IMG/VR virus record: IMGVR_UViG_2671180473_000003
Strand: one strand, 5' to 3'
Length of the DNA stretch: 9,849 nucleotides
From: a virus
Lineage: Duplodnaviria; Heunggongvirae; Uroviricota; Caudoviricetes
Part shown: positions 3,777-9,849 of the stretch, piece by piece
Position numbering within the stretch: position 1 is the first letter of the stretch
How the letters are laid out: each line of letters begins with the position of its first letter
Notes under the pieces: generated by a model
The model's database searches: none
The model's input: the letters and a program-made list of their open reading frames with translations, nothing else
What the model was told of the DNA's origin: nothing
Position numbers and translations under genes: made by a program

Positions 3777-4127
3777 TCACCGGATTCGTTCGCGCGCTGT
3801 TTTCGCTTTATGGCAGGGCCAGCACAGACTCTGCAGGTTGCTGTCTGCGTCTGTTCCGCCATGCGCTTTCGGGATGATGTGGTCGACGGTTTTCGCCTCG
3901 CTCACCACACCGACACGCAGACACAACTGACACAGACCTTTATCGCGCTTCAGAATACGGGCACGAATCACCGTCCATTTTGAGCCATAGCCACGCTGGT
4001 GGCGGCTCAGTCCGCGCTGGTGCTGCACCCAGCCTTCACCGCGATGTTTATCGCAGTAACCCGAACTGTCTGTGGTTGTACCTGCACATCCACGCTTACG
4101 GCAGGCACGTGGGATTAGTGATGGCAT
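3777..4127 (-). CDS. HNH endonuclease (packaging-associated HNH next to terminase)
   Basis: 116-aa ORF with Cys-rich zinc-finger pairs (CRKRGC...C..H, CWPCH) and the H-N-H core (DHIIPKAHGGTDADSNLQSLCWPCH). ATG start with a GAGG RBS. Confidence 0.9.
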   Translation of the reverse strand: MPSLIPRACRKRGCAGTTTDSSGYCDKHRGEGWVQHQRGLSRHQRGYGSKWTVIRARILKRDKGLCQLCLRVGVVSEAKTVDHIIPKAHGGTDADSNLQSLCWPCHKAKTARERIR

Positions 4128-4412: not shown

Positions 4413-4758
4413 NNNNNNNNNNNNNNNNNNNNNNNNNNNNNNNNNNNNNNNNNNNNNNNNNNNNNNNNNNNNNNNNNNNNNNNNNNNNNNNNNNNNNNNN
4501 NNNNNNNNNNNNNNNNNNNNNNNNNNNNNNNNNNNNNNNNNNNNNNNNNNNNNNNNNNNNNNNNNNNNNNNNNNNNNNNNNNNNNNNNNNNNNNNNNNNN
4601 NNNNNNNNNNNNNNNNNNNNNNNNNNNNNNNNNNNNNNNNNNNNNNNNNNNNNNNNNNNNNNNNNNNNNNNNNNNNNNNNNNNNNNNNNNNNNNNNNNNN
4701 NNNNNNNNNNNNNNNNNNNNNNNNNNNNNNNNNNNNNNNNNNNNNNNNNNNNNNNNNN
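4413..4758. other. Run of 346 N (assembly gap or masked sequence) inside the lysis cassette
   Basis: Seen directly in the sequence. All ORF-track translations shown as X across this span are artefacts. Confidence 1.
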
Positions 4759-4848
4759 ACCACCTGGGCCAGTGATTAACACAGATGCTATAGCAACAGC
4801 CCCACCACCAATAGCAGCTGCAACAGCCTTGCGTAATGATGGCGACAT
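4759..4848 (-). CDS. R: SAR endolysin (phage-21 R-like lysozyme), N-terminal 30 aa only; the remainder is in the N gap
   Basis: [30 protein letters not shown] is a Gly/Ala-rich signal-anchor-release domain typical of SAR endolysins. Its ATG overlaps the holin stop (TAATG). Confidence 0.7.
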
Positions 4849-5063
4849 TATTCACCTCTCGCAGCCTTACGCTTGTCTTCTCTTATTTTGAAATACAGAT
4901 TTGTCAGATAAGTCAGAAGCCCCAGAAGCAGACTTCCCAGCACACCAATCGCAGCCCACTGTGATGGACTGACCTGATCCAACCACTGCAAAAACCAGTA
5001 GCCGGCACTGCCGGCGGAGGTGCCGTAGGCAATGCCTGTTGATATTTTTTCCATCTGATACAT
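4848..5063 (-). CDS. S: Class II holin / pinholin, phage-21 S-like, with a dual-start motif
   Basis: 71-aa [74 protein letters not shown] with two transmembrane segments and a charged C-terminus. Met1/Met4 resemble the antiholin/holin dual start of S21. It sits immediately upstream of the SAR endolysin. Confidence 0.9.
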
Positions 5064-5743: not shown

Positions 5744-5818
<75 letters not shown>

Positions 5819-5821
5819 ATA

Positions 5822-5897
<76 letters not shown>

Positions 5898-5899
5898 GC

Positions 5900-5976
5900 T
5901 GGCCCACCACCGAGGACTCGAACCTCGCACCGTCAACTTAGAAGGTTGATGCTCTATCCGGATGAGCTAGTGGTGG
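5900..5976 (-). tRNA. argN: tRNA-Arg (anticodon UCU), argN/argO-like phage tRNA
   Basis: 77-nt cloverleaf: acceptor CCACCAC/GTGGTGG, D-stem GCTC/GAGC, anticodon stem TCAAC/GTTGA, loop CTTCTAA, T-arm CGAGG-TTCGAGT-CCTCG, encoded CCA. Confidence 0.8.
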
Positions 5977-5977
5977 T

Positions 5978-6054
5978 TGGTGGCCCTTGCTGGACTTGAA
6001 CCAGCGACCTGGCGATTATGAGTCGCTCGCTCTGACCAACTGAGCTAAAGGGCC
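5978..6054 (-). tRNA. ileZ: tRNA with anticodon CAU, probably tRNA-Ile2 (lysidine type), ileZ/ileX-like
   Basis: 77-nt cloverleaf GGCCCTTTAGCTCAGTTGGTCAGAGCGAGCGACTCATAATCGCCAGGTCGCTGGTTCAAGTCCAGCAAGGGCCACCA, resembling E. coli ileX as recalled. Met versus Ile2 cannot be settled from the anticodon alone. Confidence 0.8.
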
Positions 6055-6092: not shown

Positions 6093-6142
6093 ACTCATCT
6101 GACCACCAGCACGTTTAACGTCCTGTGCCGTTTTTCAGGTAT

Positions 6143-6166
6143 AAAAAAACCCGCTCATCGGCGGGT
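6143..6166 (-). terminator. Intrinsic terminator downstream of the ORF6N-domain gene
   Basis: Minus-strand stem ACCCGC / GCGGGT with loop CGATGA, followed by TTTTTTTAT. Confidence 0.55.
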
Positions 6167-6243
6167 TTAAGCTGTGTGGCGTAGTAACCACTCTTAACAG
6201 GATATTCAACTTTTTACGATCGTAAAGTTTTCGGAAAAAATTT

Positions 6244-6807
6244 TTAAAACCGCATCAACCGCTCCACCAGTTGCTCTTTACGGGCAACGATCCACCCGTG
6301 TTGCTCCAGATAAAATTTAAACCGTTCCAGAGTACATACCATCGCATCGGCGGGTACCTTTTCCGTGAACTCAACCTGACCGTGTTTATCGAAGTGGCTC
6401 AGTAATGCGCATCCATCATTTTCGATAGATGTGTTTTGTGCCGCTGGTGGCTGTTTCTGGTTGAAATAACAGTCTTCCAGTTTTTCGAACACTTCCCACG
6501 CCTGATCGGTTTCGAGCATTTTGGCGTGACGGGCTGCGCCACGTTCTGTCCAGAGGATGAGGGAGCGAACGTTACGGGCAATTTTCACAGAAACTCTTAA
6601 AGAGTTTTCGTTCTTCAACTCTCGTAACGCATCACCTTCTATCAGGAAAAAATGTTTACCTTCTATAAACCGTTCTTTGTTTCGATTGAAATTGTTTGTC
6701 AAACGCTGGCGCTCTGTTCCGTACAAATCAGCCAGCAGCTCTGTTGTCATGACAGGAAGATGGTTATGCGTAAGTGACGGGAGTTTTTCAATAGACGTGC
6801 GATTCAT
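6244..6807 (-). CDS. ORF6N-domain (KilA-N-related) accessory protein with an uncharacterised C-terminal domain
   Basis: The N-terminal region LPVMTTELLADLYGTERQRLTNNFNRNKERFIEGKHFFLIEGDALREL...RSLILWTERGAARHAKMLETDQAWEV matches the recalled ORF6N consensus. Start taken at the ATG at 6807, which has an AAAGGA RBS 7 nt upstream; the long ORF-track form (to 7005) has a GTG start, no RBS and implausible composition. Confidence 0.7.
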   Translation of the reverse strand: MNRTSIEKLPSLTHNHLPVMTTELLADLYGTERQRLTNNFNRNKERFIEGKHFFLIEGDALRELKNENSLRVSVKIARNVRSLILWTERGAARHAKMLETDQAWEVFEKLEDCYFNQKQPPAAQNTSIENDGCALLSHFDKHGQVEFTEKVPADAMVCTLERFKFYLEQHGWIVARKEQLVERLMRF

Positions 6808-7013
6808 AGACATGTCCTTTCGAATATTTTGATTTACCCCTTTTGAGAGGGTGACCGGGCGCTCAAAACCGTCGAAAGTCGGCGGGCGTATTTCCATTGC
6901 TGGTATTGTATTAGCCGCACACCCGGTCATAAACCAAGAATTCTGGACACAAAAAAACCACATGGCTATCGGGTGTGGATACCGCTTTCGAGGTGTTTTG
7001 AGCACCGCGGGGA

Positions 7014-7042
7014 AATGTAAACTGCAAACCTGAAACTGTCAA
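7014..7042 (-). promoter_or_regulatory. Putative sigma-70 promoter upstream of the ORF6N gene (leader of about 200 nt)
   Basis: Minus-strand TTGACA (-35; 7042..7037), a 17-nt spacer, TACATT (-10; 7019..7014). Confidence 0.4.
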
Positions 7043-7165
7043 CACCGTCAGGTTCCAATCATCGGGTGGTGAGACGCACAGGGTTGGAACTACCGGGAAA
7101 CCGACCGGCGAGCTTTTCAGCTCCCCCATGCGCCCCACCATAATTCAGATGTGCGCGTGCATACG

Positions 7166-7192
7166 ACAATAAAAAACACGCTCGCGGCGTGT
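7166..7192 (-). terminator. tR'-like intrinsic terminator ending a short (about 80 nt) pR' leader transcript
   Basis: Minus-strand stem ACACGC / GCGTGT with loop CGCGA, followed by TTTTTTATT, about 55 nt downstream of the predicted pR' start site. Confidence 0.6.
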
Positions 7193-7253
7193 GTCTGTCG
7201 CGGTCTCTATCCGGGGTTCCAATCCCGACGCCAGATTTTGCTGGCGCGTGAGG

Positions 7254-7283
7254 AATATAGCCCCGGACAATGTGTCTGGTCAA
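7254..7283 (-). promoter_or_regulatory. Late promoter pR' immediately downstream of Q
   Basis: Minus-strand TTGACC (-35; 7283..7278), an 18-nt spacer, TATATT (-10; 7259..7254). The -35 begins 5 nt after the Q stop codon, the expected lambdoid arrangement. Confidence 0.55.
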
Positions 7284-7287
7284 GCAC

Positions 7288-7674
7288 CTACATAATTCGT
7301 TCTACGTATCTGTCCATCTCCAGCCGGATATCAAGCATCATCAACATGCCATCAATAACCCCTTCCGCTTTCTGCAGGCGCTTGCCAATACAGGTATCCG
7401 AACACCCATGTTTCCGTGCCAGACTCATAAAAGTCATTCCACCTACGTAATAATCCACCAGCAAATCGTGCAAATCCTGATTTTTCTTGTTCAACCGGGC
7501 CATACAGCCACAAATTATCATTGCATCATCATCAGAACACTGAGGGCGTGATTTCACTTTCGACGGAATTAACCCTTTAAAACCAGCAGCGATCGACGCC
7601 CAGGATACATCTTCATGAGTGTTTGCAGCCCAAGCCCCCCACCGTTCCATAACCTGCTGAATATCACGCGCCAT
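7288..7674 (-). CDS. Q: Late-gene antitermination protein Q (933W/82-type Q family)
   Basis: [35 protein letters not shown]...[16 protein letters not shown]... resembles the 933W-type Q N-terminus and Cys-rich core as recalled. The ATG at 7674 overlaps the rusA stop; the ORF-track start at 7695 would add 7 residues. Confidence 0.85.
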
Positions 7675-8035
7675 CGTTATCACCTGTGATTTCATAAATC
7701 TTCACGCCCAGTCGCCCACCAGGAACGAGCTGACCGCGCACAATATTGATTTCATCAAACTGCTCGTCGTCTATGAGTAGTCCGGCATGCGTCAGCGCAT
7801 CCAGTGGTGCTTTCAGGATATTGTCCAGGTCACGACGGCGCTTATCCGGTGGCTCTGCAATAATCTTTATCGCCAGCCTTCCGGACAGGTTTAATTTCAG
7901 CCGCTGCTGGCGAACAATTAGCGTCACATCACGGCGATAACGCTCACCAACTTTTGATACAAAATATGTGCTGCCACGACGTCGCCAGTAAGTATTCACC
8001 GTCGGCGGATAAGGTAAAATAAACTCATGGCGCAT
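7664..8035 (-). CDS. rusA: RusA-family Holliday junction resolvase
   Basis: 123-aa ORF with the RusA catalytic motif region ([30 protein letters not shown]). It sits between the replication genes and Q, as in lambdoid nin regions. Confidence 0.9.
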
Positions 8036-8292
8036 CAGCGCAGCACCTCCTGCACCATTTTTTCAAACTTTCCAACTTTGGTTTCCAGCTCTGCCACACA
8101 ATCAACGAGCTCATCCACCGCTTTTTGTGCGCGATGTTTCGCCTGCATCAGTTCCCTGAGCGCTGGCACCATATCCCGACGAATGGCATCTTTTGTTACA
8201 CCTGTTTTTTCCAGTTGTTCCGCCTGTCGCAACATTTCCTGCGCGTGTTTACGCAATTGTTCAGAGGTAAAAGTCATTGTCTGGTTGTTCAA
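8035..8292 (-). CDS. Hypothetical small protein (predicted coiled coil), nin-region ORF
   Basis: 85-aa ORF rich in charged residues and heptad-like repeats (EQLRKHAQEMLRQAEQLEK...). Its stop overlaps the rusA start (TGATG). Start is a TTG with a GGAG RBS 8 nt upstream, or the ATG at 8277. Confidence 0.5.
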   Translation of the reverse strand: MNNQTMTFTSEQLRKHAQEMLRQAEQLEKTGVTKDAIRRDMVPALRELMQAKHRAQKAVDELVDCVAELETKVGKFEKMVQEVLR

Positions 8293-9680
8293 AAGAAACG
8301 CTCCATCTTACTGCTGTCGGTACGTGTATTGCTGTATCTGCGCGGCTGGGGCTGCCGCATTGGGGTGGAAAGAACCTGTGCGCTTTCCTGGTCCACAGGC
8401 AGAAAATGTCCGTTATAAAAACGCCGGTAAATCGTCCCCAGAGAACCGTTACGTTGTTTCGTGATATTAATTTCTGCTATGCCTGTAGCCTGTGTATCCG
8501 GGTTGTACACTTCATCCCTGTAAAGCATCAGAATGATGTCTGCATCCGCCTCTATTTCTCCGGAATTTTTCAGGTCTGAGTTCATGGGACGTTTATTGGG
8601 TCTGGACTCCACACCGCGGGAGAGCTGGCTCAGCGCAATCAACGGAAAACCACCGGATTTTGCCAGGCCTTTAAGCCCCTTTGAGATTTCACCCACGGCA
8701 AGGTCATGACGCCCCGTGGTTCGGGTTTTTATCAGCCCGAGATAATCAACCACCACCAGCGCCGTTTCCGGATGTTTAATCAGATGGTGTTTCGTTGTTG
8801 CGCATATCTCATCAATGGTCAGGTTCGCCTGGTCCACCATCCAGATATTGCGCCCGGTCATCCGCCCCACCCCTTGTGAGAAACGCGCCCAGTCTTCATC
8901 TTCAAAGTGAGCCACAGATTTCAGGCGTGATACTGGCATCCCTCCAGCCGCAGACACCATACGTTCACCAATCTGGATGTTCGCCATCTCCATGGTGAAC
9001 AGAAGCACACCATGCCCCTGCTCAGTCACCTTGTCGATGATGTCCAGCGCAAGTTCGGTTTTCCCCATCGAAGGACGGGCGGCAATGAATACCAGGTCTC
9101 CGGGCTCCATACCGCCTGTTTTTGCGTCCAGTTCATCAATACCGGTCATCAACGTCCTGGATTTCTCCAGCCCCTGATTCCGGCATTCAACACGCTCAAC
9201 CACTTCCGGAAGCACATCATCAATATGTACCGGCTGAATGACGCCCTTTCCTGTCGACAGTGTGACCATCATGTTCTGCGCATCCTTCAGGGCATCTTCA
9301 GCTGCTTCACAGGTATGCGCATCACGTAATTTCTGCAGCGCCTCATTCAGTGTTTTTTCTGCATCGCGCAGTGCGGCATTGCGCCGCAACGCTGCAACAT
9401 AGTGCTCCAGTGAAGACTTCACCCAGGTTTTACGCCCGGTATCAGTAATCACCGGGGCAAGTTCCGGCATCTCATTACACAACAGCACGGGGTCAATCAC
9501 TCCTGAAACACGGGCCTGTCTGCAGATGCCTGTGTAGATATCCCGATACGCTCGTACAGAAAAAATGTCCGCCGGTAGTGTGATCAGAATATCCATCACT
9601 TCATGATCTGCCCCACGCAGAAAGAATGCGCCAATGACAGCGCCTTCCAGGTCATCATTACGCCAGACTGGTGTTGTCAT
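8289..9680 (-). CDS. dnaB: Replicative DNA helicase, DnaB family (phage-encoded)
   Basis: DnaB-like N-terminal domain and a RecA-like C-terminal domain with Walker A (AARPSMGKTELAL) and Walker B (ALVVVDYLGL). The ATG at 9680 has a GAGGTG RBS 8 nt upstream; the ORF-track extension to the GTG at 9821 is unlikely. Confidence 0.9.
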   Translation of the reverse strand: MTTPVWRNDDLEGAVIGAFFLRGADHEVMDILITLPADIFSVRAYRDIYTGICRQARVSGVIDPVLLCNEMPELAPVITDTGRKTWVKSSLEHYVAALRRNAALRDAEKTLNEALQKLRDAHTCEAAEDALKDAQNMMVTLSTGKGVIQPVHIDDVLPEVVERVECRNQGLEKSRTLMTGIDELDAKTGGMEPGDLVFIAARPSMGKTELALDIIDKVTEQGHGVLLFTMEMANIQIGERMVSAAGGMPVSRLKSVAHFEDEDWARFSQGVGRMTGRNIWMVDQANLTIDEICATTKHHLIKHPETALVVVDYLGLIKTRTTGRHDLAVGEISKGLKGLAKSGGFPLIALSQLSRGVESRPNKRPMNSDLKNSGEIEADADIILMLYRDEVYNPDTQATGIAEINITKQRNGSLGTIYRRFYNGHFLPVDQESAQVLSTPMRQPQPRRYSNTRTDSSKMERFF

Positions 9681-9849
9681 GCAGCCACACCTCTGATACA
9701 AGAACGGTAGCTGGGCCAGTTGAACGACAACCAGTTGCGCCCCCCGTCTGTGATCCTGTCGGCAATGCGGGGGCTGATGAACGCTGGATTTGCCCCTATA
9801 TTTCCAGACACCTGTTATCACTTAACCCATTACTGGCTTGCTGCCGTAG

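Follow-up and report, generated by a model that had tools for sequence, protein, structure and literature searches.

A candidate antisense-RNA-gated antirepressor unit between the Q and tRNA genes of a lambdoid prophage

We analysed 9,849 nucleotides (nt) of DNA from a Caudoviricetes virus (IMG/VR record IMGVR_UViG_2671180473_000003); this whole stretch is referred to here as the window. Our subject is a cassette on its minus strand (7042..6140) whose gene encodes a 187-amino-acid (aa) protein with an N-terminal ORF6N domain. The cassette is probably an antisense-RNA-gated antirepressor ('anti-immunity') unit of the P1 immI and Gifsy-1 isrK kind. Between its candidate promoter and the start codon lies an RNA of the sRNA-Xcc1 family of small RNAs (sRNAs), the Xcc1-class RNA, which is complementary both to a pair of boxes upstream of it and to a second pair that overlaps the Shine-Dalgarno sequence (SD) of the gene. 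The upstream box, the RNA loop and the SD-proximal box change together among related cassettes, and the protein is a full-length homologue of Gifsy-1 AnrP. A sequence-only reading of the same DNA had taken the gene for a self-contained moron of unknown function that a lysogen could express from its own promoter. That reading did not include four RNA elements, c4-a1b1, isrK, C4 and sRNA-Xcc1, all of which match Rfam families above the gathering score within the 480-nt gap that separates the late antiterminator gene Q from the ORF6N gene. Since an antisense RNA able to pair with the SD is encoded first on the transcript, a promoter active in a lysogen should yield mainly RNA and not protein, and the picture of a free-standing accessory gene expressed in this way loses its footing.

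Antisense RNA and matched boxes

The three RNA elements nearest Q belong to a PisrK-IsrK-C4 unit (unit 1), and the cassette itself (unit 2) follows directly behind it (Table 1). The layout of unit 2, with a promoter, a1b1 boxes, a terminator-like hairpin, a C4-like RNA, a2b2 boxes at the ribosome-binding site (RBS) and then the antirepressor-type (ant) gene, is shared with P1 immI and with unit 1. The Xcc1-class RNA ends 38 nt before the ATG, and its two-box complementarity is found on both sides of its gene, to a1'b1' upstream and to a2'b2' downstream. Its fold is 95.8% paired across the 21 related cassettes described below, and its visible processing features are limited to an acceptor-like closing stem and a 3' CACCC tail. 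In the same cassettes the hairpin in front of it shows two compensatory pairs, and its U-run does not vary.

Table 1. Coordinates of the cassette (unit 2), the upstream unit (unit 1) and neighbouring genes in the window. GA, Rfam gathering cut-off; TSS, transcription start site.
Feature	Position	Strand	Remarks
Unit-2 promoter, TTGACA-17-TACATT (candidate)	7042..7014	minus	inferred TSS ~7006
Upstream target/decoy boxes	a1' CTCAAAA 7002..6996; b1' TCGAAAG 6991..6985	minus	complementary to a' and b'
Weak hairpin (CCACA/UGUGG) + U7	6978..6951	minus	putative leaky terminator, counterpart to that of IsrK
C4-like antisense RNA, sRNA-Xcc1 family	6928..6845	minus	Rfam RF02221, 77.4 bits vs GA 53, model positions 1-87
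Boxes within the Xcc1-class RNA	b' hairpin loop CTTTCGA 6878..6872; single-stranded a' TTTTGAG 6868..6862	minus	
Downstream target	a2' ATCAAAA 6833..6827; b2' TCGAAAG 6823..6817	minus	overlaps SD AAGGA 6819..6815
AnrP-family antirepressor-like gene, 187 aa	6807..6244	minus	ORF6N ~1-119, linker, C-terminal domain 133-187
Intrinsic terminator closing the cassette	6168..6140	minus	hairpin 6168..6147 + T-run
Unit-1 promoter PisrK, TTGACC-18-TATATT	7283..7254	minus	at the expected pR' position
c4-a1b1	7260..7208	minus	Rfam RF03163, 50.1 bits vs GA 46.7; overlaps isrK; unit-1 decoy/target RNA
isrK sRNA	7247..7171	minus	Rfam RF01394, 77.5 bits vs GA 50
Unit-1 terminator hairpin	7192..7176	minus	
Unit-1 C4 antisense RNA	7145..7062	minus	Rfam RF01695, 71 bits vs GA 45; equivalent of the Gifsy-1 STnc1160/orf45 region
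Unit-1 b2 target copy, GATTGGAAC (RNA letters GAUUGGAAC)	7060..7052	minus	without a gene behind it; junction to unit 2
DnaB-like helicase	9821..8289	minus	
RusA	8035..7664	minus	
Late antiterminator Q	7695..7288	minus	5' neighbour of the cassette; Pfam Phage_antitermQ PF06530, E=2.7e-52
tRNA array: CAT, Arg-TCT, Thr-TGT, Gly-TCC	6054..5744	minus	4 genes
Holin	5063..4848	minus	
HNH endonuclease	3777..4127	minus	immediately 5' of the small and large terminase genes

The evidence that carries this reading is covariation. Unit-2 cassettes were retrieved from E. coli, Salmonella, phage Nil2 (antB) and 38 viral contigs with a pattern that left the loop free and held a' and the flanks fixed, and they comprise 21 distinct sequences (alignment A2). 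The seven pairs between loop b' and box b2' are intact throughout (147/147 cells paired, 100%) and five of the seven are compensatory, whereas controls slid by 1-3 columns gave 42-62% pairing and no compensatory pairs. Four b2' specificity classes occur (TCGAAAG, CAAGTAG, TCAGTAG and CAGATAG), and for each of the loop variants CUUUCGA, CUACUUG, CUACUGA and CUAUCUG b2' is the exact complement in every case. Pairing of b1' with b' reaches 96.6%, with five covarying pairs; it is broken only in a hybrid cassette, L073, and at a single point mismatch. Since b' is the reverse complement of the two direct copies b1' and b2', RNA pairing is the best explanation for the concerted change of all three boxes. 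When loops and leaders of the four classes were compared in all 4x4 combinations, the cognate duplexes were the most stable; that of the window RNA has -21.5 kcal/mol, versus -12.8 to -14.6 kcal/mol when the same RNA is set against leaders of the three non-cognate classes. A locus with the loop CUGUUUG (L080) was excluded from the alignment, since its b1 matches but a downstream target and a gene are lacking, and a distant unit in Symbiopectobacterium has a sixth loop, UGCUAA, with b1 UUAGCA and with b2 UUAGCC (5/6 match) beside the SD.

The promoter and terminator that the sequence-only reading had assigned to the gene are both present, the former as a candidate. A promoter scan gave four promoter-like sites in 2.2 kb where 2.7 are expected by chance, so the hexamer pair TTGACA/TACATT means little by itself. 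Position says more: in 15 of 18 distinct cassettes a sigma-70 match of at least 9/12, differing in sequence, ends 7-9 nt before a conserved GGTGCTCAAAAC box (chance 1.5%), and this positional conservation despite sequence turnover argues for a candidate unit-2 promoter. LexA control of the kind found for Gifsy GfoA and N15 antC was considered and rejected, as there is no match to the 20-nt consensus. A CTGT-N8-ACAG-like site with one mismatch overlaps the -35 element (7036..7051); the window has six such sites against 3.2 expected, and this one is not conserved in E. coli EC12. The terminator keeps its position 3' of the gene in every locus compared (E. coli VL40, EC12, Gifsy-1, where it is part of isrJ, L028 and L038). 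Among the window, L003, L028 and L038, the 3' untranslated region between stop codon and terminator (6169..6243 in the window) is conserved in two versions. Gifsy-1 encodes the sRNA IsrJ at this position; Rfam isrJ was not detected downstream of the gene in the window, where a 3'-UTR-derived sRNA may nevertheless be encoded.

The ORF6N protein and competing readings

The gene has the extent given in the sequence-only reading. It starts at ATG 6807, which is kept in the 21 related cassettes behind its SD, and stops at 6246..6244. The longest frame at this place (7005..6244, 253 aa) was rejected: the extension to GTG 7005 is open in the TTTCGA class only, is blocked 1-12 codons upstream in the other classes and overlaps the RNA. 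ATG 6813 was set aside as a start because it is not conserved among relatives. The N-terminal ORF6N domain is borne out by a hidden Markov model search (Pfam ORF6N PF10543, residues 13-97 of 187, E=1.5e-20, 73.7 bits versus a gathering cut-off of 27.8), and an AlphaFold2 model resolves the separate C-terminal region as a small domain at residues 133-187 (a beta-hairpin and two helices, predicted local distance difference test score ~80-90) behind a disordered linker (120-132).

As to function, which had been left as unknown, PHROG 2379 'anti-repressor' matches the protein end to end (positions 3-187 of 187, E=4.4e-85), and Gifsy-1 STM2616/AnrP, of equal length, is 49% identical over 184/187 residues (4-185; E=7e-58). 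Judged by these matches, the protein is a common prophage antirepressor-type protein and a close relative of AnrP. Its closest match, 99% identical and named from Shigella sonnei, represents a cluster of 106 member sequences. The ORF6N family counts 4660 proteins at E<=1e-5, or 2321 cluster representatives, with residues 1-120 fused to many different C-termini, and the gene itself is ordinary and widespread. A search of NCBIfam with the 187-aa protein gave no family, and a protein scan of genome contigs (one genome per species) gave distant relatives only.

These results bear on the proposal of a self-sufficient moron, with constitutive synthesis of the protein from the cassette's promoter in the lysogen and a toxin, superinfection-exclusion or defence benefit to host or prophage. 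A single gene flanked by promoter and terminator suits that proposal, as does the mobility of the unit between positions in phage genomes, and PADLOC gave weak matches of the ORF6N domain to the candidate system PDC-S05 (E=1e-7). Those matches, however, are domain-level and limited to the shared N-domain, and for this reason a defence or toxin role was rejected. The behaviour of the homologue also speaks against it. In Gifsy-1, PisrK transcribes anrP by read-through, but the mRNA is translationally silent, and translation is switched on when IsrK pairs in trans with the C4/orf45 region; expression of AnrP increases the mRNA of the antQ operon and triggers prophage induction, and the protein shows no toxicity by itself (Hershko-Shalev et al. 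2016, PMC4825925). A test for foreign origin by base composition was negative, with a GC content of 44-48% in the cassette versus 45-55% in the flanks. What survives of the moron is a candidate promoter and a terminator of its own within a phage operon, whereas atypical composition and a function unrelated to phage development, its homologue acting in induction, do not. With a conserved SD-complementary antisense RNA standing between promoter and gene, and covarying three ways, constitutive expression of an accessory protein is very unlikely.

Several points weigh against an RNA-gated antirepressor. The invariant a-boxes carry no information, since a' and the sequence on either side were held constant in the retrieval pattern; the 21 cassettes are close relatives (mean column identity 84%), and the independent class switches behind the b-box covariation number about four to five. 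In the hybrid L073 (IMG/VR 2775506964_000008, ~10660..10890) the decoy (CAAACAG) belongs to the L080 class but loop and SD box to the UCGAAAG class, a natural decoy mismatch that might keep the cassette constitutively repressed. Single-sequence folding is unimpressive (z = -0.6 to -2.0), and the hairpin with its U7 is thermodynamically weak and would terminate poorly at best. When the whole leader is folded to minimum energy, a'b' is taken up in cis by a1'b1' and most of the SD stays open, so that an unprocessed transcript might be translatable and the default state less 'off'. The prophage repressor gene lies outside the window, and 'antirepressor' is a functional label for AnrP and the 187-aa protein alike, with repressor binding putative in both. 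Finally, the N-domain resembles DNA-binding winged-helix folds. In a rival version, which we hold to be unlikely, the RNA gating is retained and the protein would instead be a regulator that binds specific DNA sequences, directly activating early or late phage promoters or displacing the repressor from DNA. The antisense-RNA-gated antirepressor is the reading that we retain below.

The upstream IsrK/C4 unit and a proposed switch

Unit 1 is a complete IsrK/C4 unit that has lost its own gene. The ORF6N gene had been placed between tR' and the tRNA array; it does lie between the Q region and the tRNAs, but the supposed pR'/tR' pair is the promoter and terminator of IsrK. The C4 segment GUUCCAA is complementary to the isrK loop UUGGAAC, and the pair covaries with GGCGU/ACGCC (UUGGCGU/ACGCCAA) in Gifsy-1 and Nil2. 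Since the box sequences of the two units differ, units 1 and 2 should not cross-react. In alignment A1, C4 is followed by the same b2 box in Gifsy-1, VL40 and Nil2, where it leads to the ant gene, whereas in the window it leads to the unit-2 promoter; the box joins the -35 element of unit 2 directly, where Gifsy-1 and E. coli VL40 run on into the ant RBS. A frame homologous to orf45 (7141..6911, minus strand) begins at the same AUG as Gifsy-1 orf45, inside C4, crosses the unit-2 promoter into the Xcc1-class RNA and ends after 76 codons, 104 nt before ATG 6807, so that translational coupling of the Gifsy-1 type cannot operate in the window. Gene callers annotate this orf45-like open reading frame (ORF), with 72 aa in S. 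sonnei contig L025; we rejected it as a gene because its length (14-76 codons) and end point vary among relatives.

A unit 1 without a gene, followed by an uncoupled orf45-like frame that runs into unit 2, is also what an inert remnant would look like, in which unit 2 had recombined in for the 3' part of an IsrK/C4-AnrP locus and left a dead switch in a possibly defective prophage. Yet the gene is intact, as are the adjoining phage genes in the window, the protein has its 99% identical relative at the head of a large cluster, and the tandem of units 1 and 2, with all boxes matched, is also present in E. coli EC12, in Salmonella (L038, L044, L052 and L064) and in L065, with IMG/VR contigs among the loci that show it. 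A remnant is most improbable in the light of these points.

PisrK is the only good promoter directly 3' of Q and is separated from the holin gene by several terminator-like hairpins. Comparison of the window (7254..7283) with loci L001-L004, L030-L041, L052, L065 and L074 showed that the -10 region CCGGGGCTATATTCC is constant in all isrK units, whether Q lies upstream or not, and the same promoter heads isrK units away from any Q gene in Nil2 and L036. The -35/-10 spacer varies with the upstream Q family (PF06530, DUF1133 or Q82-like). This variation is suggestive of Q-binding elements, and PisrK may double as pR'.

Every enterobacterial ORF6N-family locus that we fetched has either isrK and C4 or an Xcc1-class RNA upstream, ending ~38-55 nt before the start codon. 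Gene and RNA occur together in at least five contexts, which include sites after three Q families, nin regions beside hok/sok, tail-fibre genes and a non-prophage site in Citrobacter; because the RNA is directly upstream at every fetched locus across such diverse contexts, gene and RNA gate appear to travel as one module. At the Citrobacter freundii site (L026, 1059..2058) an isrK-C4-ORF6N unit lies between YebC-like and histidine-phosphatase genes, and a 63-aa ORF that has no Pfam match overlaps the ant start by 4 nt, an icd-like coupling. The Xcc1-class RNA unit stands mostly 5' of ORF6N genes and also 5' of genes with Rha or Bro-N domains, other N-domains typical of phage antirepressor-type proteins. 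In IMG/VR loci L047, L062 and L072 a matched-box unit precedes Rha (PF09669) or Bro-N (PF02498; with a sub-threshold Ogr/Delta zinc-finger match) genes.

A mechanism can be proposed in which the sign of regulation and the processing of the RNA are taken by analogy from P1 c4 and Gifsy-1. The sigma-70 promoter of unit 2, able to fire without Q, would start a transcript that carries in turn the a1'b1' decoy, the weak hairpin with its U7, the 84-nt C4-like RNA, a2'b2' over the SD, the gene and the terminator. The C4-like RNA would probably be excised and stable, like C4 in P1 and STnc1160 in Gifsy-1; its b' loop and the adjacent a' would pair with a2'b2' and block ribosome binding, and the promoter could be active in the lysogen while the antirepressor stays unmade. 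Competition for the loop, of the kind that IsrK exerts in Gifsy-1, would come from a1'b1', acting either in cis or on a short RNA of its own, and would fix the threshold at which translation is released. Because unit 2 lies directly behind unit 1, read-through or Q-modified transcription should also enter unit 2, and PisrK read-through or Q-modified polymerase might thereby modulate release. Once made, the 187-aa protein, a payload consisting of an ORF6N winged-helix-type N-domain and an exchangeable C-domain, would lift prophage repression and promote induction.

Antirepressor units time the lytic switch of Shigella, E. coli (including Shiga toxin (Stx) phages) and Salmonella prophages without repressor cleavage, and they make cross-talk possible among prophages that share a cell. 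The 'ORF6N domain-containing protein' commonly encoded beside Q becomes annotatable as an AnrP-type antirepressor with its own RNA gate, the sRNA-Xcc1 family gains a concrete cis target, and the natural matched 7-nt box sets could serve as a small library of partly orthogonal RNA switches. A wider view, which we offer tentatively, is that the sRNA-Xcc1 RNAs, until now regarded as virulence sRNAs that stand alone and act in trans, may form another lineage of C4-type antisense switches, in which the loop of 7 nt, the decoy and the SD-proximal box are reprogrammed in concert; the classes would be hetero-immune 'anti-immunity groups', and the window would hold a two-key serial gate that links Q-region transcription to derepression.

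The setting of the cassette is that of a lambdoid prophage in its gene order, with every gene of the window on the minus strand. The S. sonnei contig L025 shares this gene order, and DNA identity of complete E. coli genomes to the window is at most about 87-93%. The HNH gene is followed by the small terminase, large terminase and portal genes, and the HNH-terminase order is an HK97-type packaging arrangement. A run of 346 N (4413..4758) hides most of the endolysin/spanin region from holin to Rz, and ORFs across it are artefacts. In E. coli VL40 the four-tRNA array likewise lies 3' of the ORF6N gene; the CAT tRNA, a tRNA-Met according to ARAGORN in the window, is annotated there as tRNA-Ile.

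Comparison with known systems

Among Stx phages, deletion of phi24B ant impairs efficient induction (PMC3064807). The 'antirepressor' genes of Stx2a phages share their N-terminal 125 residues with the 187-aa protein at ~66% identity, and Nil2 antB stands in the same promoter-Xcc1-ORF6N unit. The Stx-phage antirepressors (phi24B Ant, Nil2 antA and antB) differ from it in their C-terminal domains, which in phi24B is P22 Ant-like, and in their positions, in the nin region or near int.

The Xcc1-class RNA matches the full sRNA-Xcc1 model in sequence and structure. The sRNA-Xcc1 of Xanthomonas campestris, reportedly described by Chen et al. in 2011, is said to be an integron-borne, trans-acting, virulence-regulated sRNA, whereas the RNA of the window is encoded in cis, within a leader whose decoy and SD-target boxes match it, before antirepressor-type genes. 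An APSE phage study reported sRNA-Xcc1 upstream of an ORF6N gene and proposed no mechanism; it is the only study in the searchable literature to place the two together.

P4 CI RNA and N15 CA RNA are like the proposed RNA in being small and processed, in having complementary sequences both upstream and downstream and in controlling genes that oppose immunity. They act mainly by premature transcription termination; in the window, the overlap of target and SD suggests a block of translation instead. A parallel to P4 SeqA/CI was drawn by the authors of the Gifsy-1 study (PMC4825925).

P1/P7 immI likewise has an antisense RNA upstream of an antirepressor gene in the same transcription unit, two boxes that match a1b1 and a2b2 at the RBS, and specificity classes that differ by few bases, as between P1 and P7. 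In P1 the c4 RNA acts on the RBS of icd, a leader gene to which the expression of ant is coupled, for which the source is said to be Heinrich et al. 1995. In the window, by contrast, it is the SD of ant that b2' overlaps, the 38 nt leave no room for a leader ORF and the upstream frames are not conserved; moreover, the RNA belongs to the sRNA-Xcc1 family, outside the Rfam C4 clan, and the host phage is lambdoid, not P1-like. Repression of Ant synthesis by P1 c4 RNA via complementary upstream regions is documented (PMC8546580; also Citron & Schuster 1990, as cited elsewhere).

With the Gifsy-1 isrK-orf45-anrP-isrJ locus the window shares the order Q, a1b1/isrK, C4, gene, terminator and tRNA, homologous isrK and C4, a payload of equal length and the b-box logic of IsrK and C4 with covarying sequence. 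Unlike Gifsy-1, the window has ~190 nt inserted between C4 and the gene, comprising a second promoter, a second decoy and an Xcc1-class RNA of different specificity, and isrJ was not detected in it; in Gifsy-1 the orf45 stop overlaps the anrP start (AUGA), whereas the 76-codon frame of the window is not coupled. Because no icd or orf45 leader is coupled to ant, the cassette lacks one defining feature each of P1 immI and of Gifsy-1. It extends the P1 immI/Gifsy-1 IsrK paradigm modestly and does not overturn current understanding; what appears to be new is the predicted direct masking of the ant SD, together with a position behind a second, presumably orthogonal IsrK/C4 unit.

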